This document shows positions 10,461 through 58,240 of a stretch of DNA of 64,000 nt, piece by piece; position 1 is the first letter of the stretch, and every line of letters begins with the position of its first letter. A program made the position numbers and the translations under genes. A model generated the notes under the pieces. It did no database searches. It saw only the letters and a list, made by a program, of their open reading frames with translations, and was not told where the DNA came from. This stretch comes from Aequorivita sp. UBA3180 (GTDB taxonomy: Bacteria > Bacteroidota > Bacteroidia > Flavobacteriales > Flavobacteriaceae): the NCBI GenBank assembly GCA_002364215.1, contig DEXQ01000018.1:183287-247286 (forward strand), written 5' to 3'.

Positions 10461-10461
10461 C

Positions 10462-34845: not shown

Positions 34846-35463
34846 ATGAAAAAAGCAGGAATAATAATGATAATTGGATCCTTGCTGCTATTGGGTCTCT
34901 TTAAATTCCCGTTGTGGAATATTATGCTGGGTGCGCCCCAGTATCCAGACCCATTGGGAATGGACATCTATATCCAGGGAATTCAGGGCGTAGAGGAATT
35001 TGACATTCAAAATATTGATGGCCTTAACCACTATATTGGAATGAAGACAATTCCAAAAGTAGAGGATATGTGGGAATTTGAAGTTTTTCCTATCGTAATA
35101 GGGATAATGGTTGCGCTGGGAGTAATAATAGGGTTGCTTGGTTTCTTAGGAAAATTGAGCTACAAATGGTTCTTGGGCTGGTTTTTGGTAATGTCCATAC
35201 TTGGAATAATGGGTATGTACGACTTTAACTTGTGGTTGATTGATTATGGAACCGATCTAGACCCCAAGGCTATCATGAAACTTGAAAATCCGGATGGAAC
35301 CCCAATGACTTATAAACCACCCTTGTTGGGTTATCAAAAAATGTTGAATTTTGATGTAGATTCTTGGCCAGGAGCGGGAGCATATATGATTTTTGTAGGG
35401 ATGATGCTTACCGTAGTAGCTTTCTTTGTTGGAAAGAAAGAATATAATAAAATAGAAAAATAA
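34846..35463 (+). CDS. NosB-like membrane protein of clade II nos clusters
   Basis: PLW.I.L.APQYP..LGM.IYI, IDGLNHYIGM, Y.PPLLG; located between nosZ and nosL. Confidence 0.75.
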   Translation: MKKAGIIMIIGSLLLLGLFKFPLWNIMLGAPQYPDPLGMDIYIQGIQGVEEFDIQNIDGLNHYIGMKTIPKVEDMWEFEVFPIVIGIMVALGVIIGLLGFLGKLSYKWFLGWFLVMSILGIMGMYDFNLWLIDYGTDLDPKAIMKLENPDGTPMTYKPPLLGYQKMLNFDVDSWPGAGAYMIFVGMMLTVVAFFVGKKEYNKIEK

Positions 35464-37405: not shown

Positions 37406-38102
37406 GGATTTATATAAAAAATTTGGGAAGAACGAAGTGCTCAAGGGCATTGATCTCAACATAGAGCGAGGTGGAATTTTCTCCGTTTTGGGGCCGAACG
37501 GCTCAGGAAAAACCACGCTCATTAAATGTATTCTGGGAATGGTTTTGCCCGATTCGGGAAATATTTCCATAAATGGTAAAGCGTTGAAAAACAATTACAA
37601 ATACCGAAATGAAATTGATTATCTGCCGCAAATAGCCAACTTTCCCGGAAACCTAAAGGTAAGCGAACTCATTGCCATGATCAAAGATTTGCGCGATTCA
37701 AAAGCCACCAAAGATCAGGAATTGATCGAGCTTTTTAAACTGCAGCCCTTTCTCAATAAAAAATTGGCTAACCTTTCAGGCGGTACTAAACAGAAAGTGA
37801 ATTTAGTACTCACCTTTATGTTTGACAGTCCTTTGATAATCCTCGATGAGCCTACGAGCGGCCTCGATCCAATTTCGCATTTGCGTTTAAAGAATTTAAT
37901 CTTTTCCGAAAGGGAAAAAGGCAAGACTATTTTGGTTACCTCGCACATCTTAAGTTTTGTGGAAGAAATTGCCGACGAGATTGTTTTTCTTTTGGAAGGA
38001 AAAATATATTTTAAAGGGAGTATTCCAGATTTGAAAGCAAAGACAGAACAACCCGATTTTGAACACGCCATAGCCTCCATTTTATCTTCAAGTTATGCTT
38101 AA
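37392..38102 (+). CDS. nosF: NosF ABC ATPase
   Basis: GPNGSGKTT, LSGGTKQ, LDEPTSG; located between nosD and nosY. Confidence 0.88.
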   Translation: MIEVKDLYKKFGKNEVLKGIDLNIERGGIFSVLGPNGSGKTTLIKCILGMVLPDSGNISINGKALKNNYKYRNEIDYLPQIANFPGNLKVSELIAMIKDLRDSKATKDQELIELFKLQPFLNKKLANLSGGTKQKVNLVLTFMFDSPLIILDEPTSGLDPISHLRLKNLIFSEREKGKTILVTSHILSFVEEIADEIVFLLEGKIYFKGSIPDLKAKTEQPDFEHAIASILSSSYA

Positions 38103-38877
38103 AATATTAAAATACAGTTTTTACGATTTAATGCGAAGCCGTTGGAGCTACGTCTATTTTCTGTTCTATTTATTGCTCGGCGTGGTGCTTCTATTTTTGA
38201 ACAACGACCTTTCAAAGGCTGTGATAACGCTGATGAACGTAATCATTATTTTGGTGCCGCTTATCGGGACTATTTTTGGGGTGATGTATTATTACAACTC
38301 CCGCGAGTTTACCGAACTGCTCTTGGCACAGCCCGTAAAGCGGAGCTCCATCTTTTTGGGGCAGTATTTTGGGGTTGCCACCTCACTGTCTATGAGTTTG
38401 GTAATTGGGCTGGGAATGCCCTTTGTTTTCTACGGAATTTTTAACAGTAACGCTATTTGGGATTTTTCATTATTGCTTGTAACCGGTGCGTTTTTGACCT
38501 TCATTTTTACGGCATTAGCTTTTGTAATAGCCCTTTCCAACGAAAACAAAATCAAGGGTTTCGGGTACGCCATCCTGCTTTGGCTGTTTATGGCCGTAAT
38601 TTATGACGGAATCTTTTTAATGTCACTATTATATTTTGAAGACTATCCATTAGATAATTTTTCGCTCATCGCCACCATGCTAAATCCAGTAGATTTATCG
38701 CGGGTTTTGATACTTTTAAAGCTGGATATTTCAGCACTTTTGGGTTATACCGGCGCCGTGTTTCAGAAATTCTTTGGAACCAACTTTGGGTTGTTGCTAT
38801 CGTCAGCAATGTTAATAGTTTGGGTAGTGGTACCTACTTTCTTTATTTGGCGAATTGCGAAACGGAAGGATTTTTAA
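38095..38877 (+). CDS. nosY: NosY ABC permease
   Basis: SREFTELLLAQPV.RS, NPVDLSR; multi-TM. Confidence 0.88.
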   Translation: MLKILKYSFYDLMRSRWSYVYFLFYLLLGVVLLFLNNDLSKAVITLMNVIIILVPLIGTIFGVMYYYNSREFTELLLAQPVKRSSIFLGQYFGVATSLSMSLVIGLGMPFVFYGIFNSNAIWDFSLLLVTGAFLTFIFTALAFVIALSNENKIKGFGYAILLWLFMAVIYDGIFLMSLLYFEDYPLDNFSLIATMLNPVDLSRVLILLKLDISALLGYTGAVFQKFFGTNFGLLLSSAMLIVWVVVPTFFIWRIAKRKDF

Positions 38878-38926
38878 AATAAGAATGACATTTCTTGTGT
38901 TTTAAAAAGACTAAAATGTATTTTTT

Positions 38927-38940
38927 ATGACTTTGGTCAT
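38927..38940 (+). promoter_or_regulatory. FNR-like box upstream of 600-aa gene
   Basis: ATGAC-TTTG-GTCAT; weak -7 element CACCTTTA at 38963 (22-bp gap). Confidence 0.72.
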
Positions 38941-38998
38941 ACTATAAAACTTTTTGAATCATCACCTTTACCGCATTTTCAATCCAAATTCTTTTTAA

Positions 38999-40801
38999 AT
39001 GCAAAGCACCAGTCCGCACACCTTCCACATCCCTGTTATGGGGATTTCATACACCATAGATAGTCCCATAAAAGTGGCATGTTTTGGCATAAACTCAGCA
39101 ATTTCGGTTATTGAGGACAATATTTTGGAAGTAATGCGGAAATACTACTACCAACAAAACAATGAGCCGTACATTGCCATAACCATAAAAGATGAAGATT
39201 ACCGGGCGCGGCGCATTACAGATTATCTAAACCTGATGCAGCGCATTGTTACTTCAAAAATGGATAAGATAAAAACTTCTACTTTCGAGGCAGGTTCAGA
39301 TTTGGTAAAATATTTTGAGATGCTACCCGATACAAGCATGCTAAAGGAAAAGTATCATGAATGGCTATTTACCTCCAATCCTGAAAAGAAGGGAATGTTG
39401 GAAAATTTTCTACGTAAACTCGTGGTTCCGGGTTCGGTGGAAGTAAATATAATGACCAAAGTTGACAAGGAAAATCTAGATAAAAACAAAGATATAATTG
39501 AAAACGGATCTGATGCTTTAACGGCGCTAAAAGGGTATGCTAAGAGCGAACTCACCAATTCGTCCCTTATTTTTTCTGCAGGAATGAATCCGCGGCTCTA
39601 TAATTATATGGAAAGCTTTTCAGACTTTGATGCATACCAATGGGGCTGTTTTCATAAAAAAGTAGTCATAAAGGTTAGCGATTACCGTTCGGCTTTGATC
39701 CAGGGAAAATATCTGGCAAAAAAAGGAATCTGGGTGAGTGAGTTTCGTATTGAGTCCGGACTTAATTGTGGCGGACACGTTTTTGCTACCCAAGGCTTGC
39801 TTATGGGACCAATACTTCAGGAATTTAAGGAGAATAAGCAGGAATTGCAGGACAGTCTTTTTGAACTTTACAATCCCGCTATTATCGCCAAAGGAAAGGT
39901 TGGTTTTTCACAGCCGCATCCCATAAAAATCACGGTTCAGGGTGGTATTGGAACAAATGAAGAAGATAACTTATTACGAGATTTTTACAAAGTGGACGGC
40001 ACGGGTTGGGGCACACCATTTTTGCTATGCCCAGAAGCAACCACCGTTGATGAAAGCACACTTAAGCTGCTCTGCCAATCAAAAAAAAAAGATGTGGTTC
40101 GCAGCAAGGCATCACCTTTGGGAGTACAGTTTAATTATTTAAAAGGAACCACTGCTGAAAAGGAACGACTTGACCGGATAGCAAAAAATAAGCCCGGTAG
40201 TCCGTGTACTGAAAAGCTATTGGTCTCAAATACCGAATTTACCAAAGAGCCAATTTGCACCGCTTCAAGCAAGTATCAAAAGTTGAAACTGGAACAATTG
40301 GGAACTCTTAATCTTTCCAAAGAGGAGCTGAAGCGCCAACGGGAAGATGTTTTGGCGAAGGAATGTCTTTGTATCGGCTTGAGTAATTCGGCTGCCATAA
40401 ATTATGATGTTCCATTTCTTAAAAAATTAACTGCGGTAACCATTTGTCCGGGGCCGAATATTGTGAATTTTTCAAAAGTTACAGGCTTACGTGAAATGAC
40501 AGACCATATTTACGGTCGTAAAAACGTAATGCAACAACCCCATAGACCAATGATGTTTATTGCCGAATTGAGGCTGTACATTGATTATCTGAAAAAAGAG
40601 ATAAAGAGTACCTTCTCGCCAACTGCCCGCGATTTTAAAGGATGGGAAAAATTTAGTGCGAATCTTCTCGATGGCATCGCGCATTACTATGATTTGGCCA
40701 CTACTTATACCTTGAACAATACCGAACAATTTGAGCATGATTTAAAGGAAGCCCAAAACGAAATTTTAAAAATTCAGGAATCGCAGTTGCAGTTGGGGTA
40801 G
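38999..40801 (+). CDS. Uncharacterised protein, probable NMO/FabK/FabX-like FMN TIM-barrel oxidoreductase with Cys cluster
   Basis: HIPVMG, IESGLNCGGH, VQGGIG, GTGWGTPFLLCPEA, SPLGVQF, and Cys in SPCTEK, PICTAS, ECLCIGL. Confidence 0.5.
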   Translation: MQSTSPHTFHIPVMGISYTIDSPIKVACFGINSAISVIEDNILEVMRKYYYQQNNEPYIAITIKDEDYRARRITDYLNLMQRIVTSKMDKIKTSTFEAGSDLVKYFEMLPDTSMLKEKYHEWLFTSNPEKKGMLENFLRKLVVPGSVEVNIMTKVDKENLDKNKDIIENGSDALTALKGYAKSELTNSSLIFSAGMNPRLYNYMESFSDFDAYQWGCFHKKVVIKVSDYRSALIQGKYLAKKGIWVSEFRIESGLNCGGHVFATQGLLMGPILQEFKENKQELQDSLFELYNPAIIAKGKVGFSQPHPIKITVQGGIGTNEEDNLLRDFYKVDGTGWGTPFLLCPEATTVDESTLKLLCQSKKKDVVRSKASPLGVQFNYLKGTTAEKERLDRIAKNKPGSPCTEKLLVSNTEFTKEPICTASSKYQKLKLEQLGTLNLSKEELKRQREDVLAKECLCIGLSNSAAINYDVPFLKKLTAVTICPGPNIVNFSKVTGLREMTDHIYGRKNVMQQPHRPMMFIAELRLYIDYLKKEIKSTFSPTARDFKGWEKFSANLLDGIAHYYDLATTYTLNNTEQFEHDLKEAQNEILKIQESQLQLG

Positions 40802-41100
40802 AGGTAATGGGTATTTTCATTTAGATATATTTTAGCCGTTATGTCGAGTGAATTTAAGGTCTTGCGATTTATTCTATACTTGAATAAATTGTGAGAATAA
40901 GTTCAGTATCCCTACATAAGCCTTTGCCCGTCAATAATGTCTTCACACGGAAATAGAAATAGTTTCCGAATATCTTTCTCCGCCTTTAGAATTCTTACAA
41001 ACATTCTAAATTTTAAATCCGTTATGAAGTAATAAAGCTGAAATCTTGCATTTTTCCATCGTACCTATTCTTAAAAAATTCGAAAATAACTTTTCTAAAT

Positions 41101-41114
41101 ATGATAATGGTCAT
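41101..41114 (+). promoter_or_regulatory. FNR-like box for the nor operon
   Basis: ATGAT-AATG-GTCAT; TTATTTTG at 41137 (22-bp gap). Confidence 0.78.
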
Positions 41115-41148
41115 AAATCATTTTTTGTGAATGTTTTTATTTTGCTAT

Positions 41149-41166
41149 TAAGATATATATGTCTTA
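41149..41166. promoter_or_regulatory. Putative Rrf2/NsrR-like operator upstream of norC
   Basis: TAAGATATATATGTCTTA near-perfect palindrome just downstream of the -7 element; matches sites at 56771 and 58147. Confidence 0.68.
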
Positions 41167-41192
41167 AATAAACAATTTAAAACCTGACCAAT

Positions 41193-41639
41193 ATGTTAAG
41201 CAAACAACAAGCACGGGCATTTTTCCTTGGCGGAACGCTCGTAACATTCCTGATTTTTATTGGCCTTACCATTTATTCATTTAGCGATGGCAACGACCAA
41301 ACCAACTATGAAAACATTACCGAACAAGTAGTGCGCGGCAAGGTTATCTGGGAAGAGAACAACTGTATGGGCTGCCACACCATTCTTGGGGAAGGTGCCT
41401 ATTATGCACCCGAACTTACCAAGGTAATTGAACGCCGTGGCGAAGGCTACGTAAAAGCAGTGCTTATGACTCCAGTGCCTTGGGCACCAAACGATCGCAA
41501 AATGGTAGCCTACGGTTTTTCCGAAGAAGAAGCTATGGATGTCATCGCCTTTTTTAATTGGATTGGGGAGATAGACCTAAATGGCTTTGACCGTATTGTG
41601 TCGCCGTTGGCAAAAGACAAGCAACTAACCAATAACTAA
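41193..41639 (+). CDS. norC: Nitric oxide reductase cytochrome c subunit
   Basis: N-terminal TM, GKVIWEENNCMGCHTILGEGAYYAPELT. Confidence 0.93.
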   Translation: MLSKQQARAFFLGGTLVTFLIFIGLTIYSFSDGNDQTNYENITEQVVRGKVIWEENNCMGCHTILGEGAYYAPELTKVIERRGEGYVKAVLMTPVPWAPNDRKMVAYGFSEEEAMDVIAFFNWIGEIDLNGFDRIVSPLAKDKQLTNN

Positions 41640-41661
41640 CCAAAAATAAAATTTTATACTG

Positions 41662-43011
41662 ATGAAATATAAATCTCAAAAAGTAGCGTACTGGTTTTTT
41701 GCACTCTCTATGCTTTTACTGGTACTTCAAATAACCTATGGCTTTATTATGGGTTTCGCCCGAATCGGAATGGATGGCTTGCACGAATTTATTCCTTTTA
41801 ACACAGCGCGTGCTGTTCATACCAACCTGCTTGTAGTTTGGTTGCTCTCCGGATTTATGGGAGCTGCCTATTACATTATCCCCGAAGAGGCCCAACGCGA
41901 GCTCGTTAGCGTAAAGTTGGCGTATGTGCAGCTTATTTCACTTGCAGCCGTGGGTGTTGCAGCAATTGTAGGCTATCACTTTAACTGGTGGGAAGGCCGT
42001 AAGTTTTTGGAAATTCCACGCCAGCTCGACTATTTGGTAGTTTTAAATGTATTATTGTTTTTGGCATTAATACTCTTGACGCTCTTCAAAGGAAAACGAA
42101 AAACCACAACGGCACTTGTGCTTACTATGGGGCTTTTGTTTGCTGCTTTGTTATACATTCCCGGAATGTTACCGTTTGACAGCCAGGTAACCGACAGCTT
42201 TTTCCGCTGGTGGGTTGTTCACCTTTGGGTTGAGGGCGTTTGGGAGCTTATCATGGGCGGTATCCTTGCCTTCCTATTAATAAAGTTAACAGGTGTTGAC
42301 CGTGAGGTTATCGAAAAATGGCTTTACGTAATCGTGGGTCTCACATTCCTTTCCGGAGTACTGGGTACCGGGCACCACTACTATTATATTGGTGTGAATA
42401 AAATCTGGCTTATCGTTGGTGGAATTTTCTCAGCTCTGGAGCCATTGGCTTTTCTTGCAATGGCACTTTTCGCAGTAAATATGTACCGCAAGGGTGAAAA
42501 GAAACACCCCAACAAAATAGCTTTGTTTTGGACGCTGGGCGCTGCAATTGTATCCTTCGTGGGTGCGGGACTTTTAGGATTTGCACACACTCTGCCACAA
42601 ACAAACCTTTATACCCACGGAACCTTGGTAACCGCGATGCACGGCCACTTAGCGTTTTGGGGTGCTTACGCCATGATTGTTTTGGCAATTATAAGCTACA
42701 GCCTTCCAAATATGACGGGACGTAAATTTTATGATGGCGTGCGTGGCCGCGTGGCATTTTGGACAGCCAATATAGGGATGATCGGGATGACGATGGCCTT
42801 TGGAGTAGCTGGGGTGGCACAGGTTTATTTGGAACGGAAATTTGGGATGGAATTTATGGCGGTTCAAAAAGAAATTAGCATCCACTTTGTAGTGTTGATT
42901 ATCTGCGCCAGTCTATTCGCCGTAGGTATTTTAACCTATATCTATGATTTTTATAAGCACGGTCGCCCAACAGATGAAGCTTTGGAAACCGTGGAAAGTA
43001 CATACCTATAA
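41662..43011 (+). CDS. norB: Nitric oxide reductase large subunit (cNOR)
   Basis: RAVHTN, WWVVHLWVEGVWE, GTGHHYY, ALEP, AMHGHLAFWG. All six His and the conserved Glu are present. Confidence 0.96.
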   Translation: MKYKSQKVAYWFFALSMLLLVLQITYGFIMGFARIGMDGLHEFIPFNTARAVHTNLLVVWLLSGFMGAAYYIIPEEAQRELVSVKLAYVQLISLAAVGVAAIVGYHFNWWEGRKFLEIPRQLDYLVVLNVLLFLALILLTLFKGKRKTTTALVLTMGLLFAALLYIPGMLPFDSQVTDSFFRWWVVHLWVEGVWELIMGGILAFLLIKLTGVDREVIEKWLYVIVGLTFLSGVLGTGHHYYYIGVNKIWLIVGGIFSALEPLAFLAMALFAVNMYRKGEKKHPNKIALFWTLGAAIVSFVGAGLLGFAHTLPQTNLYTHGTLVTAMHGHLAFWGAYAMIVLAIISYSLPNMTGRKFYDGVRGRVAFWTANIGMIGMTMAFGVAGVAQVYLERKFGMEFMAVQKEISIHFVVLIICASLFAVGILTYIYDFYKHGRPTDEALETVESTYL

Positions 43012-43133
43012 TAAATTAAAGGCCTGAAATGGGTTACGCTCTTATACCTGAAAACCTGGGAATTAATTCATATAAAACAGTTTTAAGTCATTCCCAACCA
43101 GAACCAAGTTTCGGGCCTTTTTAATAAATTGTT

Positions 43134-43230
43134 TGTCTGGTCGAGCCCTTCGGCAGACTCAGGATAAACTAAAGTCGTGATCTAATTAGCAGTAGGAAAC
43201 TTAGCGTTTTCGACTGCACTCGAACTGACA
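43134..43230. repeat. REP/REPIN-like palindromic intergenic element
   Basis: Outer arms tgtctggtcgag / ctcgaactgaca (10/12 complementary) with an internal cccttcggcagactcagg unit. Confidence 0.55.
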
Positions 43231-43247
43231 TTTAAAAATTTAGCATT

Positions 43248-44069
43248 ATGTCCACTACAGATACTATCAATATAAAACCATTAACAGAGCTTTCTTCGGA
43301 AACACCTTTTTATAAACCCATTTCGCGGGAGGTGGAAGTTTTTCAGCACGCGTTCAAAAATAAATTGCCTATTTTGCTGAAAGGCCCCACGGGAACTGGA
43401 AAAACTAGGTTTGTAGATTTTATGGCGCATCAGTTAGAGCAACCGCTCATCACCGTTTCCTGCCATGAGGAAACCTCTTCCACAGATCTTATTGGGCGCT
43501 ACATCATCAAGGGTGCCGAGACCATTTGGGTGGACGGGCCGTTGACGAAAGCCGTAAAAGAGGGCGCCATTCTTTATTTGGATGAAATTGCCGAAGCCCG
43601 TCCGGACGTTGTGGTTGCGATACATTCCTTGACGGATCACAGAAAGGAACTTTATATTGACAAATTAGGCATTACCGTAAAGGCACATCCCGATTTTATG
43701 CTCGTGGCGTCTTTCAATCCGGGTTACCAAAAAGGTTTTAAGGAATTAAAACCATCTACCCGCCAGCGTTTTGTGGCGCTTTCGTTTCAATATCCGACCT
43801 CAAAAGACGAAACCGAAATCGTTGCAACTGAAACTGGCTTGGACAAAGACACTTCAAAAAAACTGGTGAACATCGCCAATAAAATCCGCAATCTCACCGA
43901 GTTGGGGCTTACTGAAACCGTTTCCACCCGTTTGTTGGTGGACGCGGCAATGCTTATAAACAGTGGCCTTCCGAAGCGGCTTTCGGTAAAAGTAGCCATA
44001 GTGGAACCGTTGACCGACGACGCGGAAATTACCCAAGCACTCACCGACCTCTGCGATTTGATGATTTAA
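43248..44069 (+). CDS. norQ: NorQ (CbbQ/NirQ/NorQ) AAA+ ATPase
   Basis: KGPTGTGKTRFV, YLDEIAEAR, KPSTRQRF, VSTRLLV. Confidence 0.93.
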   Translation: MSTTDTINIKPLTELSSETPFYKPISREVEVFQHAFKNKLPILLKGPTGTGKTRFVDFMAHQLEQPLITVSCHEETSSTDLIGRYIIKGAETIWVDGPLTKAVKEGAILYLDEIAEARPDVVVAIHSLTDHRKELYIDKLGITVKAHPDFMLVASFNPGYQKGFKELKPSTRQRFVALSFQYPTSKDETEIVATETGLDKDTSKKLVNIANKIRNLTELGLTETVSTRLLVDAAMLINSGLPKRLSVKVAIVEPLTDDAEITQALTDLCDLMI

Positions 44070-44079
44070 GCCAAAAGCC

Positions 44080-45849
44080 ATGTTTGAACCCGATGAGTTT
44101 ATCTTTGCCAAGGTTGCAAAATTCCTAAAACACCGAAAAAAAAGTGCGAGGGAAGCCATTGCGCACACCGTAAAGCTTAGTGAAATAAAGTCTCGGCTTA
44201 CTTTGGTGGCCCGCGCCGTAACCGGCCATCCCATCGAAATTTTTGAGGCAGAGCAGGAGGGCGGTTATAAGAACAACGCCTTCTTTTTACCCGAACGGTT
44301 TTCGGGTTCTGATACTTCAGAAAAAAATCTGGCTTTTTATATTTTTAGGACGCTTTATCTTTCAATTCAAAAAAGTTTTCAGCTTAATTATGAATTGGGC
44401 GAAGAACATACGTTGGAAGCGGCCCGGCAAATTTCACAAGAAAATTCTGAAAAAGTCTTAAAGGAGATTTTCAGCCAATTCCCGGGAACTGAAACCATTT
44501 ATACCGAACTGAAATTGCTTTTTGAAGAAAATACTTCGGAAAAAAATCCGCCCGACTATTACTTCATCTATGGGAAATGGATGGAAAATTCTCCAGAAAC
44601 TCCGAAGAAAAAAGTGCTTCAGAATATTTCAGAAAAAGTAAAATCTGCTATCGGAGAAGAGATAAATACTATTTTGAAGGCTAATGCGGTGGAGGAGATT
44701 AAATCCATTGAAGTTGACAAAAAAGCGCAAGAAGATTACGTGCTCACCCACAATTTTGAAAAGGCCGAAACCGCGGAAGAGTGGGAGGGCGGCTGGCGCG
44801 ATTTTGATGGCGATGACGAGCTGAACGACCACGCCAACGCGCTCGAAGATTTAAATATGAAACAGACCGTGCGGGTGGACGACCCCACGCATTCCATATA
44901 TCAGGCGGAGTTTATTGAAAATACCACAATTTCAGAAAGCGCTGAAATTGAAAATGCCAACTACAACATTTTGTATGACGAATGGGACTATTCCAAACGT
45001 GTTTACAAACCAGATTTTTGCAAAGTTTATCCGCAAACACAGACTGAAACCGATTCTGATTATTATAGAAATACCCTACGGGAACACGCTTCGACTTTGA
45101 TGGGGCTTCGGAAAATGCTCACTTCGGTAAATAATAAATACCAGCAGCAACGCAGGCAGCTGCAGGGCGAAGAATTTGACCTCGATGCACTCACGGATTT
45201 ATATGTGGACGTTCATTCGGGCCACACGCCTTCGGAAAATATTTACCTATCAAAACGCAAAAAGGAAAAAGACCTTTCCATTTTGATGCTTTTAGACAGC
45301 AGCCTTTCCAGCGATGGCTATGCCGCGGACAATCGGGTAATTGATGTGGAAAAGCAGGTTTCCATCATTTTTGGAGAAATTTTGGAGGAATTCAACGTAG
45401 ATTTTTCTATTGCTGGTTTCTATTCCAAAACCCGCAACCACAGTTCCTATTTAACTTTAAAGGATTTTGACGAACCGTGGCAAAAGGCAAAACACAAAGT
45501 GGGAGCATTGCAGCCAAGTGGCTATACACGCATTGGTACGGCGTTGCGGCATTCCGGAGCTTTGCTGGACAAGCGCGACACCAAAAACAAATGGGTTATC
45601 CTGATTTCTGATGGAAAACCTAATGATTACGACAAGTACGAAGGCAAATACGGCATCAACGATGTGAAGCAGGCGCTTCGCGAGCTGAACCAGCGGAATA
45701 TCAATTCGTATGCATTGGCAATCGAAGCACAGGCAAAATATTACTTGCCGCAGATGTTTGGGCAGAACCATTTCCAGATTTTGACTACGCCCGTTGAATT
45801 GCTGCAATCGCTTGTAAAACTCTACGACAAAATAAAGCACCAAAGCTAA
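44080..45849 (+). CDS. norD: NorD von Willebrand factor A activation protein
   Basis: Y.EWDYS, GEEFDLDA, LLDSSLS (MIDAS), YTRIGTALRH, ISDGKPND.D.YEG.YG..D. Confidence 0.92.
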   Translation: MFEPDEFIFAKVAKFLKHRKKSAREAIAHTVKLSEIKSRLTLVARAVTGHPIEIFEAEQEGGYKNNAFFLPERFSGSDTSEKNLAFYIFRTLYLSIQKSFQLNYELGEEHTLEAARQISQENSEKVLKEIFSQFPGTETIYTELKLLFEENTSEKNPPDYYFIYGKWMENSPETPKKKVLQNISEKVKSAIGEEINTILKANAVEEIKSIEVDKKAQEDYVLTHNFEKAETAEEWEGGWRDFDGDDELNDHANALEDLNMKQTVRVDDPTHSIYQAEFIENTTISESAEIENANYNILYDEWDYSKRVYKPDFCKVYPQTQTETDSDYYRNTLREHASTLMGLRKMLTSVNNKYQQQRRQLQGEEFDLDALTDLYVDVHSGHTPSENIYLSKRKKEKDLSILMLLDSSLSSDGYAADNRVIDVEKQVSIIFGEILEEFNVDFSIAGFYSKTRNHSSYLTLKDFDEPWQKAKHKVGALQPSGYTRIGTALRHSGALLDKRDTKNKWVILISDGKPNDYDKYEGKYGINDVKQALRELNQRNINSYALAIEAQAKYYLPQMFGQNHFQILTTPVELLQSLVKLYDKIKHQS

Positions 45850-45850
45850 A

Positions 45851-46435
45851 ATGGAAAGTACGGCCAAAATAGATTACAAAAATATTTTTTACCCACCGGG
45901 AGGAATCCTGATATGGATTATTATTTATTTGGAATTGGTAACCTTCGGGATTGCCTTGGTTTTTATGGCGCTGAACGCAAGGGCAGAGCCCGAACTTTTT
46001 CACGAATCCCGCCTGTTGCTAAACACGGCTTATGGCGCCATAAACACCGTTTTTCTGCTCAGCAGCGGTTGGTGCATGGCGCAGTCGGTGCATTTTCTGA
46101 AATTGGGAAATTTTGGCAAAAGCAAGTTGTTTCTTCGGTTGACCATTCTCGGCGGAATGCTGTTTTTGGTTCTGAAAGCCGTGGAATACGTCGATAAGAT
46201 TGAAGCAGGATTGACGGTGGGTTACAATGCATTTTTTGAATATTATTGGATGCTCACCCTTTTTCACGTAATACACGTGGTGGTGGGGGTTATTATTTTG
46301 CTGGTTTTGGGAAGAACCCTCAGCAAAAAACCCGAAACTCTCAAAATTGCTGATTACGAATCGGGCGCAGCCTTTTGGCATATGTGCGATTTGATTTGGC
46401 TGTTGCTCTTCCCCATAATCTATTTACTTTTTTAA
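45851..46435 (+). CDS. Cytochrome c oxidase subunit III-like protein (NorE-like)
   Basis: NT.FLLSS, KAVEY..K, YWMLTLFHVIHV, FWHMCDLIW..LFP..Y. Confidence 0.85.
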   Translation: MESTAKIDYKNIFYPPGGILIWIIIYLELVTFGIALVFMALNARAEPELFHESRLLLNTAYGAINTVFLLSSGWCMAQSVHFLKLGNFGKSKLFLRLTILGGMLFLVLKAVEYVDKIEAGLTVGYNAFFEYYWMLTLFHVIHVVVGVIILLVLGRTLSKKPETLKIADYESGAAFWHMCDLIWLLLFPIIYLLF

Positions 46436-50334: not shown

Positions 50335-50348
50335 CTGATATTTATCAT
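50335..50348 (+). promoter_or_regulatory. FNR-like box, possibly bidirectional
   Basis: CTGAT-ATTT-ATCAT; TATTTTTA at 50371 (+, 22-bp gap) and TAATTTCG at 50305-50312 (-, 22-bp gap). Confidence 0.78.
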
Positions 50349-50400
50349 ATTTCAGGCAAGAGTGATAGGGTATTTTTACGACCAAATAATTCAATTTGAA

Positions 50401-50832
50401 ATGGTCTCCAATCCAAGGCCTTATATTTTTATTATGGCGGTTCTGCTCGCCCTCTTCGGTTTTTATAATTATATAATCTATAATACCGATGGGTACGTGG
50501 CCGTGGAAAAATTATCCCCTGTGGCAGTACAAGGCCAGCAACTGTTCCAAAGCAACCGTTGTTGGTCCTGTCATCAATTGTACGGTTTGGGTGGCTATTT
50601 GGGTCCGGATTTAACAAACGTATATTCCGCCGAAGGCAAAGGTGCAAATTATATAAAAGCGTTTTTGAACAGTGGTGTGAAAAGTATGCCACAATTCCAC
50701 TTTACGGAAGAGGAGAAAGAGGCGCTGGTGCAATACTTAAAACAAGTAGATGAAACGGGAATTTACCCAAATTACGATGCCGAAATTGAAGCAACGGGCT
50801 GGGTGAAAATAAAATATAGAAATGAAGAATAA
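50401..50832 (+). CDS. NorC-like membrane-anchored monoheme cytochrome c (second copy)
   Basis: N-terminal TM, GQQLFQSNRCWSCHQLYGLGGYLGPDLT, SMPQF. Confidence 0.85.
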   Translation: MVSNPRPYIFIMAVLLALFGFYNYIIYNTDGYVAVEKLSPVAVQGQQLFQSNRCWSCHQLYGLGGYLGPDLTNVYSAEGKGANYIKAFLNSGVKSMPQFHFTEEEKEALVQYLKQVDETGIYPNYDAEIEATGWVKIKYRNEE

Positions 50833-52147
50833 AGTGCCGCTCCTGTTTTTGTTGTTTGCGCTCACCGCCCTCTTTTTGGGAATGCTCTTTGGGCTTACAG
50901 CTTCACTTCAGTATTTGTTGCCAGAATTTTTAAAGGAAACGGTGCCCTTTTCCAAACTTCGACCATTTCACGTAACTTCTGAAACTTCTTGGATTGTGCT
51001 TGCAGCCACGGGCAGTATTTATTTTTTTATCGCTTCGGTTGAGAAGTTTGAGCTCTTTTCACCAAAATTCCAGTTGCTTCATTTCATACTTTTCCTGTTG
51101 ACGGGCGTTGCCATTTATTTTTCTTTCGCTTTCGATTATACCGAGGGCCGCGAATATTTCGCATTTAAACCTATTTTAATGATTCCAATTTTGATAGGTT
51201 GGGTACTTTTCGCAATCAACTATTTTAAAACGCTCTACACCAATATGAAGGGCTGGCCTGTCTATTACTGGATGTGGGGCACGGGCATCGTCTTTATGTG
51301 CTATCATTTAATGGAGGCACATTTTTGGCTGTTCGATTTTTTTAGGTTGAATTTTATAAAAGATTTTGCCGTCCAGTGGAAATCGACCGGTTCGTTTACG
51401 GGCTCGTGGAATATGCTGGTTTACGGTATTTCAATTTATCTGATGTCCGAAATCAAAAAGGATACCGATGTGGCCACCAATAAAATTGCGTTTTTCTTTT
51501 ACTTTTTGGGGTTGACGAATTTAATGTTCGGCTGGGCGCACCATACCTATTTATTGCCAACCCAACCGTGGATTCGGTATGTGGCTTACGCAATAAGTAT
51601 GACGGAGTGGATTGTGCTTGCATCGATAATTTACAATTGGAAACGTTCGGTTTTAAAGATTGAAAAGGAAAATCACCCCATGGCATACAGGTTTTTGTTG
51701 GCAACCGATTTTTGGATTTTTATCAACATTATTTTGGCGCTATTATTCTCCATTCCCGCCATTAATTTCTTTACCCACGGCACGCACGTTACCGTGGCAC
51801 ATTCCATGGGCACTACCATTGGCATTAATACAACGATACTTTTTTCGGCCTTGTTTTTTATTGCGCATTATGTGCGGCCACAGCTAAAAACCGATACCAA
51901 ATGGGTTAAGCGTGGGTTTGTTGCTTTCAATATCTCGCTGTTTATCTTTTTCGTTTCATTGATAATTGCCGGTGCTAAACGCAGCTACTGGATGTACGTT
52001 TCAAAGGAAGGATCGTTTGCGGAAATGCAGGATTCAATCGTGCCGTACTATATTTCGTTTTTCATCTTTGGAATTGGGATATTTATTTCGCTTTTAATAG
52101 TAGCGACGCCTATTTTCAAAGTTTTGCTTCACAAAATAAAATCATAA
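50822..52147 (+). CDS. Divergent NorB-like heme-copper oxidase superfamily subunit I with substituted metal ligands
   Basis: LRPFHV, GWAHHTY, GTHVTVAHSMG align with NorB helices II, VII and X. Helix VI lacks the His and Glu. Confidence 0.75.
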   Translation: MKNKVPLLFLLFALTALFLGMLFGLTASLQYLLPEFLKETVPFSKLRPFHVTSETSWIVLAATGSIYFFIASVEKFELFSPKFQLLHFILFLLTGVAIYFSFAFDYTEGREYFAFKPILMIPILIGWVLFAINYFKTLYTNMKGWPVYYWMWGTGIVFMCYHLMEAHFWLFDFFRLNFIKDFAVQWKSTGSFTGSWNMLVYGISIYLMSEIKKDTDVATNKIAFFFYFLGLTNLMFGWAHHTYLLPTQPWIRYVAYAISMTEWIVLASIIYNWKRSVLKIEKENHPMAYRFLLATDFWIFINIILALLFSIPAINFFTHGTHVTVAHSMGTTIGINTTILFSALFFIAHYVRPQLKTDTKWVKRGFVAFNISLFIFFVSLIIAGAKRSYWMYVSKEGSFAEMQDSIVPYYISFFIFGIGIFISLLIVATPIFKVLLHKIKS

Positions 52148-52153
52148 GTACCG

Positions 52154-53080
52154 ATGGATTTACATCAAAAAATAAAAGAGCTTAAAACGCAAAAAAATGC
52201 TGTAATTCTCGCACACTATTACCAAGTGCCCGAAATTCAGGAAGTGGCAGATTATGTGGGCGATAGCTTGGGGCTTTCGCAAAAAGCAGCAGAAACCGAT
52301 GCCGAAATGATCGTCTTTGCTGGCGTGCATTTTATGGCGGAAACGGCCAAAATTTTGAACCCCGCTAAAAAAGTTTTGCTTCCCGATTTAATGGCGGGCT
52401 GTTCGCTGGCAGATTCGTGTCCGCCCATTGCTTTTAAAAAATTGGTGGACGCCCATCCGGACCACGTGGTAATAACGTATGTGAATTGTTCTGCAGAAGT
52501 AAAGGCCTTGAGTGATATTATTTGCACCTCTTCCAACGCCGAAAAAATAGTGAATTCGGTGCCAAAGGACGTACCGATTATTTTTGCGCCCGATAAAAAT
52601 TTGGGGAAATATATTCAGAAGAAAACTGGGCGGAACATGCTGCTTTGGGATGGAGCTTGCATTGTGCACGAAGCCTTTTCGATGGATAAACTGCTGAAAT
52701 TATACAAAGAAAATCCGGGTTCAAAAATAATTGCCCACCCCGAAAGCGAGAGCCATATTTTGGAAACTGCAACCTATATCGGTTCCACGGCGGGAATGAT
52801 TGATTATGTGAAAAAGCATCCTTCGGAAAAATTTATTGTTGCCACTGAAGCTGGAATTCTTCATAAAATGCAGCAGGAAGTACCGCAAGCGGTACTGATT
52901 CCAGCCCCTGCGGAAGAAGACAACACCTGCGCATGCAGCGAATGTGCGTTTATGAAAATGAACACTTTGCAAAAATTATACTACTGTCTGCTGAATGAAA
53001 ATCCACAAATAGAAGTTACCGAAGAAATACGTAAAAAAGCAATTCTGCCCATTGAGCGAATGCTGGAATTATCGAAGTAG
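52154..53080 (+). CDS. nadA: Quinolinate synthase
   Basis: [38 protein letters not shown]. Confidence 0.96.
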
Positions 53081-53082
53081 TG

Positions 53083-54651
53083 ATGGAAACCAATTTTTTG
53101 ATTATCGGTTCGGGCGCTGCGGGTTTGACGCTTGCAGTGAAACTTGCTGCGGAATTTCCAAAGAAAAAAATCACGGTGGTGACCAAGGCGCACCAGTCGG
53201 AATCGAACACCAAATATGCGCAGGGCGGCGTGGCGGCGGTTTTTGATTTAAAGGAAGATTCCTTTCAAAAACACATTGAGGATACGCTGATTGCGGGTGA
53301 CGGACTATGCGACAGAGCGGTTGTGGAAATGGTCATAAAAGAAGGCCCAAAAAGATTGCGCGAACTGATGGCATGGGGCGCCAAATTTGATACCGATGCC
53401 AATGGCGAACTCAATTTAGGTAGGGAAGGAGGCCATTCAGAATTTAGGGTAATCCATCATAAAGACACAACGGGCAACGAGATTGAGCGTGCGCTTTTGG
53501 AACGTACCAATCAACTTTCGAATCTTATGTTGCTGCCGCATCATTTCGCAATAGACTTGATTACGGAGCATCATTTTTCAGAAAATAAAACTGAAAATCT
53601 TTCGTGTTACGGGGCTTATGTTTTGGACCAAATTTCGGGGAATATTTTTACCATAAAAGCAGACTGCACCACACTCGCTTCGGGCGGAATGGGGCAGGTT
53701 TACGGCCATACCACCAATCCCAAAGTAGCAACGGGCGATGGTATTGCCATGGCATATCGGGCAAAGGCGAGGATCAAAAACATGGAGTTTATCCAGTTTC
53801 ATCCCACCGCGCTTTACGACGGGAATAATGGCGCTTCGTTTTTAATTTCTGAGGCAGTTCGTGGTTTTGGAGCGTTTCTTCGGAATAAAAATGGCGAACG
53901 GTTTATGTTGAATTATGATGAACGGGGCGAATTGGCTTCCCGTGATATTGTTTCGCGTGCCATAGATTCTGAAATAAAAAAATCGGGCGATGACTGTGTT
54001 TTCTTAGATTGTACACATTTGAATATCGAAGATTTCAAAAAACATTTTCCAAACATATATGAAACTTGTTTGCAGAAGAATATAAAAATTGCGAAAGATT
54101 GGATTCCCGTGGTTCCCGCATCGCATTATTTGTGCGGCGGGGTGGTTGTGGATATGGATGGAAAGACTTCGGTGAAAAATCTTTTTGCCTGTGGCGAATG
54201 TTCGTACACCGGTTTGCACGGCGCCAACCGGCTGGCATCCAATTCGTTGTTGGAAGCTTTGGTCTATGCAGACCGTATTTTTAAATATCTCTGTAAACAT
54301 CAGCCCTCACAGACGACCAAAGCCATTCCGGAATGGAATGATGCTGGGACGGTTTTATTGAAGGATTCTGAAACACTTCAGCAAAAAACCTTAGAATTAC
54401 AAGAATTAATGCGAAGATTTGCCGGGGTGGTGCGAGAAAGTGAAGATTTAAGAAAGGCATCCCTTCAACTTGAAAAATTGTATTTTGAAACGGAAGCGCT
54501 TTATCAGAAACACAAACTAAACACGGTACTTTCAGAGCTTCGGAATATGGTAAATGTGGCGCATTTGATCATCCAGCAATCCCTGAAACGAAAGGAAAAC
54601 CGTGGTGGATATTTTAATGAAGATTATATAAAAGTAAAAGAAATAAGATGA
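53083..54651 (+). CDS. nadB: L-aspartate oxidase
   Basis: IIGSGAAG, NT.YAQGG, REGGHS..R..H, EFIQFHPT, SEAVRG, SHYLCGG, HGANRLASNSLLE. Confidence 0.96.
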   Translation: METNFLIIGSGAAGLTLAVKLAAEFPKKKITVVTKAHQSESNTKYAQGGVAAVFDLKEDSFQKHIEDTLIAGDGLCDRAVVEMVIKEGPKRLRELMAWGAKFDTDANGELNLGREGGHSEFRVIHHKDTTGNEIERALLERTNQLSNLMLLPHHFAIDLITEHHFSENKTENLSCYGAYVLDQISGNIFTIKADCTTLASGGMGQVYGHTTNPKVATGDGIAMAYRAKARIKNMEFIQFHPTALYDGNNGASFLISEAVRGFGAFLRNKNGERFMLNYDERGELASRDIVSRAIDSEIKKSGDDCVFLDCTHLNIEDFKKHFPNIYETCLQKNIKIAKDWIPVVPASHYLCGGVVVDMDGKTSVKNLFACGECSYTGLHGANRLASNSLLEALVYADRIFKYLCKHQPSQTTKAIPEWNDAGTVLLKDSETLQQKTLELQELMRRFAGVVRESEDLRKASLQLEKLYFETEALYQKHKLNTVLSELRNMVNVAHLIIQQSLKRKENRGGYFNEDYIKVKEIR

Positions 54652-55244
54652 AAAATTTGATAGAAAGCTCGGTAAACAAAGCAATGGATTATACACAATA
54701 CAACTTGCTTTTTAAAAAACTGGTGGCGGAAGGCCGAACTACTGGCGAAGAAACCCAAGAAAAAATTGATTATACAAAACTGAATTTTAGTCGAACAAAG
54801 CGTTTGGACAAAACCGCTGAAATTTCTGAAGAAGCAATTGAGGTTTTCAAGAATATTTCAGAAAAACAAACTTGGCTCGTAATCAGCGAACCATGGTGTG
54901 GTGATGCCGCGCAAACGCTTCCGTTTTTGAATAAAATTGCACAACTTTTAGAAATCATCGATTTGAAGATTGTGCTTCGCGATGAAAATCCGGAGTTGAT
55001 GGATAAATTTCTTACCAATGGCTCCCAATCCATACCTGTGGTTATTATGCTCGATTCGGACTTCAACGTAATAAATACTTTTGGTCCGCGCTCTAAGGCC
55101 GCGACAAAATTGGTTATCGATTACAAGGAACATCACGGAAAAATAGACGACGCCTTTAAGGAAATGCTACAGCTTTGGTATAATAATGATAAGGGAATTT
55201 CAATAATTAATGATATTTTGGAAACCCTGAGTGTAAAAGCGTAA
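54648..55244 (+). CDS. Thioredoxin-fold protein (single-Cys WCGD type)
   Basis: ISEPWCGDAAQ, RDEN.ELMD.FLTNG..SIP, FGPR. Confidence 0.85.
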   Translation: MKNLIESSVNKAMDYTQYNLLFKKLVAEGRTTGEETQEKIDYTKLNFSRTKRLDKTAEISEEAIEVFKNISEKQTWLVISEPWCGDAAQTLPFLNKIAQLLEIIDLKIVLRDENPELMDKFLTNGSQSIPVVIMLDSDFNVINTFGPRSKAATKLVIDYKEHHGKIDDAFKEMLQLWYNNDKGISIINDILETLSVKA

Positions 55245-56770: not shown

Positions 56771-56788
56771 TAAGATAGATTTATCCTT
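56771..56788. promoter_or_regulatory. Putative Rrf2 autoregulatory operator
   Basis: TAAGATAGATTTATCCTT lying 43 bp upstream of the rrf2 start. Confidence 0.65.
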
Positions 56789-56831: not shown

Positions 56832-57260
56832 ATGTTTTCAAAAGCTTGTGAATATGGTATTCGGGCCGTTCTATTTATAGCAAAACAATCTCAAAAAGAT
56901 TTGCGACCAAATATCTCAGAAATATCCAAAGCAGTGGACTCACCGGAACCATTTACTGCCAAGGTTTGCCAACAACTTGCACGTGCGGGTATAATCTTAT
57001 CCAAAAAAGGGCCCAACGGTGGGTTTTATTTAGAAAAGAATTCGACCCTGCGATTGGCCGATATTGTTTCTGAAATAGATGGCGATCAAATATTTAACGG
57101 TTGTAGTCTCGGCTTACGCGAGTGCTCCTCGGAGCATCCCTGTCCCGTACACGATCAATTTATGGACGTACGCAACGGTTTAAGACAAATGTGCGAGAAT
57201 ACGTTGGTGATGGATCTTGCCAGTAATTTGGAAGAAGGCCAAACATTTTTAAAAGTTTAA
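56832..57260 (+). CDS. Rrf2 family regulator with Fe-S Cys motif (NsrR/IscR-like)
   Basis: MFSKACEYGIRA, S.KGPNGGF.L, CSLGLRECSSEHPCPVH. Confidence 0.92.
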   Translation: MFSKACEYGIRAVLFIAKQSQKDLRPNISEISKAVDSPEPFTAKVCQQLARAGIILSKKGPNGGFYLEKNSTLRLADIVSEIDGDQIFNGCSLGLRECSSEHPCPVHDQFMDVRNGLRQMCENTLVMDLASNLEEGQTFLKV

Positions 57261-57269
57261 GACAGAAGT

Positions 57270-57662
57270 ATGACGACGGATATAATGAAATTGAATGATG
57301 TAAAGCATTTGGTAGATTCCTTTTATGGAAAAATACGGGAAGATATCCTATTGAAGGATATTTTCAACAATATAATCCAAGACCGCTGGCCCGAGCATCT
57401 TGAAAAAATGTATACCTTTTGGCAAACCGTTCTTTTGAGTGAGCATACTTATTACGGCAGCCCTTTCCCGCCCCATGCAAAAATGCCCATTGATAAAGAG
57501 CACTTTGACCGATGGTTACAATTATTCTTTGAAACCATCGATGAAAATTTTACGGGTGAAGTGGCCGAGGAAGCAAAATGGCGCTCATCTAAAATGGCCG
57601 AGATGTTTCAGTTTAAAATAAATTATATGCGTGAAAACTCAGGCTCTAAATACGTTCAATAA
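57270..57662 (+). CDS. Group III truncated hemoglobin
   Basis: LVDSFYGKIRED.LL..IF, W..HL.KMY.FW..VLL, Y.G.PF..H, F.RWL.LF. Confidence 0.92.
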   Translation: MTTDIMKLNDVKHLVDSFYGKIREDILLKDIFNNIIQDRWPEHLEKMYTFWQTVLLSEHTYYGSPFPPHAKMPIDKEHFDRWLQLFFETIDENFTGEVAEEAKWRSSKMAEMFQFKINYMRENSGSKYVQ

Positions 57663-58129
57663 TGGAAAAGAAAAAACCGATTAAAAGACACACTGCCTTA
57701 CAGCCCTTAAGCCGGCAGCATCATTTTGGGCTACTTTTCAGTTGGAAATTGCGCAAGGGTTTCAGCAAAAATATTGCTCCCGAAAGACTTCAAAAATATG
57801 CCGCTTGGTTTTTTGAGGAAGAAATAAAGCCTCATTTTGAAGCCGAGGAAAAGCATGTTTTTACGGTTTTGAATGAAGACAATGAGTTAATTGTCCGTGC
57901 CTTAAAAGAACACAGGCGAATAGAGCGCCTTTTTAAGGAAAACGAAAATCCTGAAAAATCCCTAAGCCAGTTGGAGGAAGAGCTCGATGCGCATATCCGT
58001 TTTGAGGAGCGTATTCTTTTTAATGAAATCCAAAAAGTAGCCACCGAAAGTCAACTCCAAAAAATTTCAGAAATCCATTCTGAAAATGTAACACCACCTG
58101 AATATTCTGATCCATTCTGGGAAAATTAA
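57662..58129 (+). CDS. Hemerythrin/HHE domain protein
   Basis: LSRQHH, PHFEAEE, EH..I, HIRFEER.LF. Confidence 0.88.
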   Translation: MEKKKPIKRHTALQPLSRQHHFGLLFSWKLRKGFSKNIAPERLQKYAAWFFEEEIKPHFEAEEKHVFTVLNEDNELIVRALKEHRRIERLFKENENPEKSLSQLEEELDAHIRFEERILFNEIQKVATESQLQKISEIHSENVTPPEYSDPFWEN

Positions 58130-58146
58130 CCTTATTAAGTCTATTT

Positions 58147-58164
58147 TAAGATAAAAATATCCTT
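58147..58164. promoter_or_regulatory. Putative Rrf2 operator upstream of ric
   Basis: TAAGATAAAAATATCCTT, 2 bp from the FNR-like box. Confidence 0.68.
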
Positions 58165-58166
58165 TT

Positions 58167-58180
58167 ATGATTTAGGTCAT
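58167..58180 (+). promoter_or_regulatory. FNR-like box upstream of ric
   Basis: ATGAT-TTAG-GTCAT; GAAATTTG at 58203 (22-bp gap). Confidence 0.75.
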
Positions 58181-58240
58181 ATTTTGGGTGTGAATTTATG
58201 CTGAAATTTGCCCCATATTATTCATAAAAAGATATTTACC

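Follow-up and report, generated by a model that had tools for sequence, protein, structure and literature searches.

The question raised by one locus of Aequorivita sp. UBA3180 is what a protein of 600 amino acids (aa) does when its gene stands between the genes for nitrous oxide (N2O) reduction and those for nitric oxide (NO) reduction. The window analysed comprises 64,000 nucleotides of contig DEXQ01000018.1 (assembly GCA_002364215.1, forward-strand positions 183,287 to 247,286), and all coordinates below are those of the window. An earlier note on this DNA had placed the gene between nos and nor and had read its product as an expanded flavo-iron-sulfur (Fe-S) enzyme of the nitronate monooxygenase (NMO)/FabX type. 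The location is as described, with nosY (38095-38877) on one side of the open reading frame (ORF) and norC (41193-41639) on the other, and every motif quoted in that note is present in the translation of the ORF.

38999 to 40801, plus strand: gene for the 600-aa protein P0001, a single ORF with an ATG start

P0001 has a mass of 68 kDa and is predicted to be cytoplasmic, with no signal peptide or membrane helix predicted. The interpretation favoured here, which stands about an even chance of being right, is that it is a stand-alone cytoplasmic redox enzyme of the flavin-barrel superfamily, belonging to a low-oxygen and N-oxide programme, that would act on acyl or enoyl thioesters.

The barrel and its cysteine-rich domain

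An AlphaFold2 model of P0001 built on 29 homologues (pLDDT 87.2, pTM 0.88) has a regular (βα)8 pattern, with strands predicted at residues 9-11 (β1), 32-36 (β2), 147-152 (β3), 188-193 (β4), 220-226 (β5), 248-252 (β6), 310-314 (β7) and 334-336 (β8). A helical insertion that is found in neither FabK nor NMO interrupts the barrel between β2 and β3, and a domain of mixed secondary structure in the model (residues ~350-520) and a helical tail follow it.

39023 to 40036, plus strand: (βα)8 barrel, residues 9-346 (AlphaFold model and Foldseek)
39116 to 39421, plus strand: helical insertion of ~100 residues (40-141) between β2 and β3 (secondary structure and alignment)
39749 to 39778, plus strand: post-β6 loop IESGLNCGGH (251-260), which holds C257 and H260; counterpart of EGxEAGGH in NMO and FabK
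39935 to 40021, plus strand: phosphate-binding loops, post-β7 VQGGIG (313-318) and post-β8 GWGTPF (336-341)
40040 to 40558, plus strand: Cys-rich C-terminal domain, residues 348-520, with C403, C420, C456, C458 and C483
40553 to 40795, plus strand: C-terminal helical tail of three long helices, residues 519-599 (AlphaFold model)

When the model was searched against the PDB with Foldseek, the top match was Helicobacter pylori FabX (9lt5, E 5.8e-9; TM 0.57-0.63 normalised to FabX), followed by the trans-acting enoyl reductases (trans-ER) DfnA and MlnA, PfaD, FabK, and the nitronate monooxygenases/PA1024, with probability 1.0 throughout. All 25 PDB matches with E <1e-3 were FabX, trans-ER, PfaD, FabK, NMO or a related IMPDH-like barrel; the first 18 were enzymes that act on substrates bound to acyl carrier protein (ACP), namely FabX, DfnA/MlnA, PfaD and FabK, and IMPDH and GMP reductase stood further down the list (E 4e-3 to 2e-2). 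Each barrel motif of P0001 falls on a predicted β-strand end of the model. At the level of fold, P0001 almost certainly belongs to the NMO/FabK/FabX flavin-barrel superfamily, and the barrel of triosephosphate isomerase type that the earlier note had predicted is what the comparison of the model with FabX and NMO found.

The motifs on which that prediction was built lie at residues 10-15 (HIPVMG), 251-260 (IESGLNCGGH), 313-318 (VQGGIG), 334-347 (GTGWGTPFLLCPEA) and 372-375 (SPLG), and, towards the C-terminus, at 401-403 (SPC), 420 (a single cysteine), 455-461 (ECLCIGL) and 482-487 (ICPGPN). Set by eye against the aligned FabK-type proteins of this genome, the barrel motifs pair on matching strands: PIIQAGM with HIPVMG, FGVNV with VEVNIM, TSAGNP with FSAGMNP, VVHVVSS..A with VIKVSDYRSA, and AEGFEAGGH with RIESGLNCGGH, followed after β7 and β8 by AAGGI with VQGGIG and GVQxGSRF with GTGWGTPF. 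Because this correspondence is read by eye only and hhalign does not recover it, the kinship is one of fold or superfamily and not of family.

Nor are the motifs of the barrel and of the C-terminal domain a product of chance. Among 265 homologues at 29-100% identity, K225, Q235, E248, E252, G259, S372, P373, C403, C420 and C458 are invariant, and N150 is identical in the 264 homologues that cover that position. H260, C257 and C456 are kept in 264 of the 265 and C483 in 263, while in the phosphate-binding loops Q314-G315-G316 is kept in at least 263 of 265, G336 in 264 of 264 and F341 in 259 of 264. Thus the GGH histidine and the cysteines, on whose conservation the earlier proposal depended, are each missing from two of the 265 homologues at most.

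The closest structural relative, FabX of H. pylori (HP0773; PDB 7e1q, 9lt5), is an acyl-ACP dehydrogenase/isomerase that acts on decanoyl-ACP and has flavin mononucleotide (FMN) and a [4Fe-4S] cluster; its catalytic residue is His182, and the cluster is held by C300-x3-C304-x3-C308-x11-C320 in a C-terminal subdomain that replaces the NAD(P)H site of FabK (PMC8626469). P0001 resembles FabX in its NMO-type barrel, in the histidine of the GGH loop and in the Cys-bearing extension that follows the barrel in place of the FabK NAD(P)H site. The two proteins differ in other respects: identity in the structural alignment is 14%, with no sequence or profile match; FabX has 363 aa, whereas P0001 has 600 aa with its 100-residue helical insert and 80-residue helical tail; and the C-x3-C-x3-C-x11-C arrangement of FabX contrasts with five cysteines spaced x16, x35, x1 and x24 in P0001 (C403-x16-C420-x35-C456-x-C458-x24-C483). 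A Neisseria relative of FabX is given as required for making unsaturated fatty acids anaerobically, in a statement cited in PMC11300592, and the anaerobic role given there echoes the FNR-type control of the 600-aa gene.

Other members of the superfamily are similarly related in part. FabK, PfaD, DfnA and MlnA, which are FMN- and NAD(P)H-dependent enoyl-ACP reductases, share the barrel (ranks 4-18 of the fold search), and PfaD and DfnA also carry extra domains around it, but in these enzymes NAD(P)H binds directly and a conserved Cys cluster is lacking. Nitronate monooxygenase and the NADH:quinone reductase PA1024 share the fold and the motif themes P-[IV]-x-x-G, SAG-x-P, E-x-G-x-x-GGH, GGI and G-[ST]-x-F; they use O2 or quinone, however, and lack the Cys domain, and PF03060 does not match P0001. 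Judged from the modelled barrel, P0001 probably holds a flavin, with FMN the best candidate, and residues 348-520 form a probable metal or Fe-S site.

Natural fusions and a proposed mechanism

In 13 clusters (~1160-1177 aa), Flavodoxin_1, FAD_binding_1 and NAD_binding_1 domains are joined to a complete copy of the family protein, and one further, partial fusion of this kind comes from a Kiritimatiellia metagenome-assembled genome (MAG). The three domains constitute an NADPH diflavin reductase of the CysJ/CPR type. These fusions are single ORFs on several independent contigs, where they stand alone in their neighbourhoods, and they argue that the family protein is an electron-accepting catalytic unit, usually served by a separate flavodoxin or ferredoxin, that runs in the reductive or reduced-flavin-dependent direction.

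A second kind of fusion joins a PlsC-type acyltransferase (PF01553) to a complete family copy in a diverged pair of proteins, P0152 (981 aa) and P0390 (1051 aa). The two proteins are 67% identical in their C-terminal part, P0390 is 42% identical to P0001 over 579 residues, and P0152 was found on two independent contigs. The earlier suggestion of a lipid enzyme gains from this fusion, which is real, although the acyl substrate stays conjectural. Together, the diflavin and PlsC-type fusions point to an electron-fed enzyme that would act on acyl chains. In four clusters (five with P0131) a TetR regulator stands N-terminal to the family copy; P0131, P0350, P0354 and P0367 (~812 aa) comprise a complete TetR, with N- and C-terminal domains, and a complete homologue, and the joining of an enzyme to a DNA-binding repressor is unusual. 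One-off fusions to a TonB plug, UxaC, OLD-TOPRIM and a glycosyltransferase look chimeric and were set aside as likely artefacts. Because the five cysteines are so constant and because the family is found fused to CysJ-type, PlsC-type and TetR partners, the balance tips towards an Fe-S cluster in P0001.

An FMN barrel combined with a [4Fe-4S] cluster and an NAD(P)H-flavin module is known from FadH (2,4-dienoyl-CoA reductase), the enoate reductases and dihydropyrimidine dehydrogenase, in which this wiring serves the reduction of activated C=C bonds. The CysJ-fused members of the present family would be alike in wiring, from NADPH to flavin or flavins, to a metal centre and on to the barrel flavin. 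FadH-type enzymes differ in possessing barrels of the Old-Yellow-Enzyme or DHODH type and classical cluster motifs; unlike theirs, the reductase module of the family is a CysJ/CPR-type diflavin unit, and it occurs in one lineage only.

Taken together, these observations suggest a mechanism whereby the 600-aa gene would be transcribed from its own FNR-type box within a low-oxygen and N-oxide programme, its product being no part of the N2O- or NO-reductase machinery itself. A donor of the flavodoxin or ferredoxin type, which in some lineages a CysJ-like NADPH diflavin reductase provides in cis, would deliver the electrons, and these would pass via a cysteine-bound cluster to the barrel flavin. 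There the flavin, H260 and C257 would act on an acyl or enoyl thioester, reducing or isomerising a C=C bond in it, with the outcome that membrane lipid may be adjusted when O2-dependent desaturation fails.

The acyl-chain substrate is the most tentative part of this scheme, and less than an even bet. It is proposed because the best structural relatives all act on acyl-ACP, because PlsC-type acyltransferase and TetR fusions occur, because short-chain dehydrogenases (SDR) are found among the neighbours, and because the genome carries an orthodox FabK (E 7.5e-116 to PDB 4iql) and one O2-dependent desaturase, FabX not having been found in this genome. A more ambitious version, that the family is the missing O2-independent route to unsaturated or modified acyl chains in aerobic and microaerophilic Bacteroidota, is a long shot. 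It takes as its premise that such Bacteroidota have FabK and a desaturase and no FabA or FabX, and it would cast the family as an FMN/Fe-S isomerase or reductase of acyl chains, driven by ferredoxin or flavodoxin, whose evolution was independent of FabX and whose regulation is shared with N2O and NO respiration.

Low-oxygen control, neighbours and distribution

The 600-aa gene has its own FNR-like box, as the earlier note had said, in the form of a perfect palindrome.

38927 to 38940: FNR/Crp-type box ATGACTTTGGTCAT, core TGAC-N4-GTCA, a perfect 5-4-5 palindrome 71 bp before the start codon
31405 to 38877, plus strand: nos operon with its own FNR-type box; cytochrome c, fasciclin, nosZ, nosB, nosL, nosD, nosF and nosY
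41102 to 46435, plus strand: nor operon; norC-norB-norQ-norD and a COX3-like gene, with its own FNR-type box (41102) and an Rrf2-type palindrome (41149-41166)
40948 to 40968, plus strand: terminator-like hairpin, 146 bp past the stop codon (consensus scan, weak evidence)

The box is one of 14 TGAY-N4-RTCA sites in the window, 13 of which are intergenic (4769, 9176, 11541, 12793, 29647, 31405, 38928, 41102, 50336, 55397, 58168, 60343 and 62825) and stand 26-280 bp before a start codon, 12 of them at 26-134 bp. The genes that follow encode a ribosome hibernation factor (HPF), a PAS histidine kinase, universal stress proteins, the nos operon, the 600-aa protein and norCBQD, as well as a second norCB-like pair followed by nadA-nadB, an ADP-forming acetyl-CoA synthetase, an acetyl-CoA hydrolase/transferase, RIC and CcoI. 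Together, the 13 boxes would mark out a large low-oxygen regulon of the FNR type that spans the window. The box of the 600-aa gene is also conserved: it occurs within 250 bp upstream in 38 of 100 orthologue loci, mostly at 57-130 bp, where ~3% would be expected from background density. The gene very probably belongs to a low-oxygen/NO regulon, and the earlier description of it as hypoxia-induced fits this conserved box, the induction itself being read from the sequence.

A separate element, TAAGATA-N4-TATCTTA (at most 2 mismatches), is found at 41149-41166, 56771-56788 and 58147-58164, before norC, rrf2 and ScdA/RIC, and is probably the operator of an Rrf2/NsrR regulator, whose single gene in this genome lies at 56832-57260. 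At the same mismatch limit the palindrome was not found before the 600-aa gene. A candidate second operator there, the palindrome AAGAATGACATTTCTT at 38881, was rejected: it is unique in the window and not above chance, and the element at 38880-38897 has 4 mismatches to the Rrf2-type palindrome. The weak terminator-like hairpin would set the gene apart from the nor operon. An Rfam scan of 38700-41300 gave no credible match, and a sigma-70 promoter scan carries no information in Bacteroidota.

The window holds several other features of note. The PAS histidine kinase gene overlaps that of a 378-aa receiver-Crp hybrid regulator (10378-11514; the two together 9225-11514), which is 41% identical to a Response_reg + cNMP + HTH_Crp protein encoded two genes from the homologue in another genome; such hybrids stand within 2-4 genes of the homologue at loci L037, L110, L123 and L126. 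Behind the single box at 50336 lie a second cytochrome c and NorB-like pair (156 and 441 aa) and, in an uninterrupted series after it, nadA, nadB and a gene for a Thioredoxin_9 protein (50362-55244). A compact NO-stress cluster (56832-58966) comprises rrf2 and genes for a truncated globin (57270-57662), a hemerythrin-domain protein (57662-58129) and ScdA/RIC (58208-58966). Within the nos operon, the nosZ-nosL interval holds a 205-aa ORF (34846-35463) without a Pfam match, which corresponds to the flavobacterial NosB described in PMC9697520.

The distribution of the family reaches well beyond denitrifiers. More than 8000 homologues, all labelled 'hypothetical', are present in a collection of 5.8 billion sequences, where the closest relatives of P0001 are from Aequorivita, and the family makes up 956 clusters at 50% identity (E <1e-3). 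More than 600 genome records match it. In an even draw of 301 Bacteroidota genomes the gene is present in 110 (~37%), at 41-58% identity and usually in single copy, and homologues occur beyond this phylum in Desulfosarcina sp. BuS5, Thermodesulfobacteriota, Kiritimatiellia, Krumholzibacteriia, Omnitrophota, Ignavibacteria and a Planctomycetales MAG, some carriers being strict anaerobes. Homologues 56-59% identical to the Aequorivita protein also appear on contigs titled Bordetella parapertussis, Asaia bogorensis and Rhizobium MAGs (L086, L102 and L106), which are probably mis-binned Bacteroidota sequence.

Of the genomes drawn, 53 carry the gene together with nosZ, 57 the gene only, 50 nosZ only and 141 neither, which corresponds to an odds ratio of 2.6 (Fisher p = 1.5e-4, without phylogenetic correction). 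Among the 53 co-carriers are 20 in which nosZ is no more than 15 kb from the gene, mostly 4-7 kb, so that the gene stands against the nos cluster in those genomes. The link to denitrification that the earlier note had drawn, and had proposed to check by co-occurrence across Bacteroidota, holds as an association and as proximity, but it is facultative, since 57 of the 110 carriers lack nosZ and homologues occur in strict anaerobes.

Neighbours were counted at 101 loci, in a window of four genes from the homologue, and 31 of these loci have one or more Nor, Nos, Rrf2 or RIC genes.

NorB-type oxidase: 15 loci
Rrf2 regulator: 14 loci
PNPOx/YhbP-like small protein: 13 loci, in 10 directly upstream on the same strand
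PTPS: 13 loci
Histidine kinase: 10 loci; NosY: 9 loci
U32 peptidase, SDR and tryptophanase-like lyase: 8 loci each
ScdA/RIC: 7 loci; NadA and Crp/Fnr regulator: 5 loci each
CcoI and HemN-like radical SAM: 4 loci each

Tight same-strand partners are few (Rrf2 at 5 loci, PTPS at 4, PNPOx-like at 4), and the gene is otherwise monocistronic; in distant phyla and on the fusion-bearing contigs no operon partners were found, the gene being monocistronic there and its neighbours uninformative. Two local arrangements recur. A PTPS/QueD-like gene (~148 aa) lies directly beside the NorB-type gene near the homologue at 13 of the 101 loci (for example L073:616-2513), and a U32-family peptidase, a 140-150-aa PNPOx/YhbP-like protein and the homologue occur together at Chitinophagaceae-type loci (L023, L069, L071, L088 and L108), with the U32 gene followed by the PNPOx-like gene on the homologue's strand at L023, L069 and L088. 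This trio is a possible oxygen-independent modification module. The 600-aa gene is a frequent resident of low-oxygen/NO islands and not a dedicated nos/nor accessory, because 57 of 110 carriers are without nosZ, tight partners are few, and the protein has neither a signal peptide nor a membrane helix.

Alternative functions and the place of the family

A number of results weigh against a flavin- and cluster-bearing enzyme of acyl chains. P0001 finds no Pfam family at E up to 1, PF03060 included, and so is not a sequence-level member of the NMO family; NCBIfam returned noise only, and neither phmmer with P0001 nor hmmsearch with the family profile found a match in the PDB. An in-register profile link to FabK was sought with hhalign against a local FabK alignment, using both the full family alignment and a version with the helical insert cut out, and was rejected when only an out-of-register local match appeared, at a probability of 10-35%. 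The FabX-type cluster motif is ruled out by the different Cys spacing, and the Cys domain modelled alone (residues 348-520, 54 sequences, pLDDT 87) has no significant fold match in the PDB and does not retrieve FabX, its only match being a weak one to DfnA (E 7.8e-3); zinc is a possible occupant of the site. Phosphate-binding loops like those after β7 and β8 are also known from barrels without a flavin, IMPDH among them, and the catalytic cysteine of IMPDH lies in the post-β6 loop, where C257 sits in P0001. The lipid link has a narrow base, consisting of a single acyltransferase fusion lineage, the TetR fusions and the SDR neighbours, and the mostly monocistronic gene with its variable neighbours gives no substrate from context. 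Of the class proposed in the earlier note, then, the NMO/FabX-type fold stands while family membership does not, failing on PF03060, hhalign and Cys spacing. Likewise its flavo-Fe-S assignment keeps the barrel and the conserved H260 and cysteines and loses the FabX-type cluster motif, and FMN plus [4Fe-4S] is put forward conditionally, because the Cys spacing is unlike that of FabX and the isolated domain does not retrieve it.

The setting could be read in other ways. An enzyme of nitrosative stress, acting on a nitroalkene, nitronate, nitroso species or nitrosylated iron within an NsrR/Rrf2-type NO response, would suit the NorB, Rrf2 and ScdA/RIC neighbours (15, 14 and 7 of 101 loci, with five tight same-strand Rrf2 pairs), the fold of nitronate monooxygenases, and a window whose genes for Rrf2, truncated globin, hemerythrin and RIC make it an NO/hypoxia island. 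Yet the Rrf2-type palindrome stands at norC, rrf2 and ric and not before the 600-aa gene, acyl-ACP enzymes outrank NMOs in the fold search, and the acyltransferase fusion points to lipid, so that this role is unlikely. The detoxification of nitro compounds, as suggested earlier, fares no better: nitronate-monooxygenase chemistry is improbable for the family because it needs O2, while the family occurs in strict anaerobes. A stand-in for an O2-requiring cofactor or RNA-modification step, working with the U32 hydroxylase, PNPOx/YhbP-like protein, PTPS or NadA, is rather less probable again. PNPOx-like genes at 13 loci (10 directly upstream on the same strand), PTPS at 13, U32 at 8, NadA at 5 and HemN-like genes at 4 speak for it, and FNR-type control suits anaerobic back-up enzymes; against this, each partner is present at no more than 13% of loci and is seldom tightly coupled to the gene (four loci each), PTPS seems to be the companion of norB and not of the 600-aa gene, and no such partner adjoins the gene in this window.

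Even the flavin may be questioned, for in a barrel of the IMPDH/GMP-reductase type C257 would attack a phosphorylated substrate as the nucleophile, with a structural zinc held by the C-terminal cysteines. IMPDH and GMP reductase are among the fold matches, phosphate binding by GGIG and GxG loops is generic, the post-β6 position of the conserved C257 is that of the IMPDH nucleophile, and the Cys domain has no Fe-S fold match. NMO-superfamily structures nevertheless match better by five to six orders of magnitude, the histidine of the GGH loop, which is typical of NMO and FabK, is nearly invariant, and a fused NADPH diflavin reductase argues for an electron-accepting cofactor, all of which makes a non-flavin barrel improbable. 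Least probable is a dedicated accessory of N2O or NO reductase, in maturation or electron supply: position between nosY and norC, proximity to nosZ and the phylogenetically uncorrected co-occurrence favour it, but more than half of the carriers have no nosZ, the protein is predicted to be soluble and cytoplasmic whereas NosZ is periplasmic, the gene has a promoter box of its own, and the family occurs in non-denitrifying strict anaerobes. A redox enzyme of acyl or enoyl thioesters, fed with electrons under low-oxygen control, is thus the reading retained here.

No published description of the family was found in the literature, and no Pfam or NCBIfam model matches it. It is an unnamed family, new within a known superfamily, that shares the barrel and has the helical insert, the five-cysteine domain and the helical tail as its own, and it ranks among the larger enzyme families that have yet to be named. 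The CysJ-fused form is a self-sufficient version that could be screened directly for substrates, and if an acyl-chain substrate proved true, the family would represent a new solution to anaerobic lipid remodelling. Bacteroidota count among the major clade II consumers of N2O in soil, sediment and wastewater, and because the gene is kept beside N2O- and NO-reductase, Rrf2 and RIC genes behind a conserved FNR-type box, the family is likely to be an unrecognised part of how these bacteria survive the loss of oxygen.

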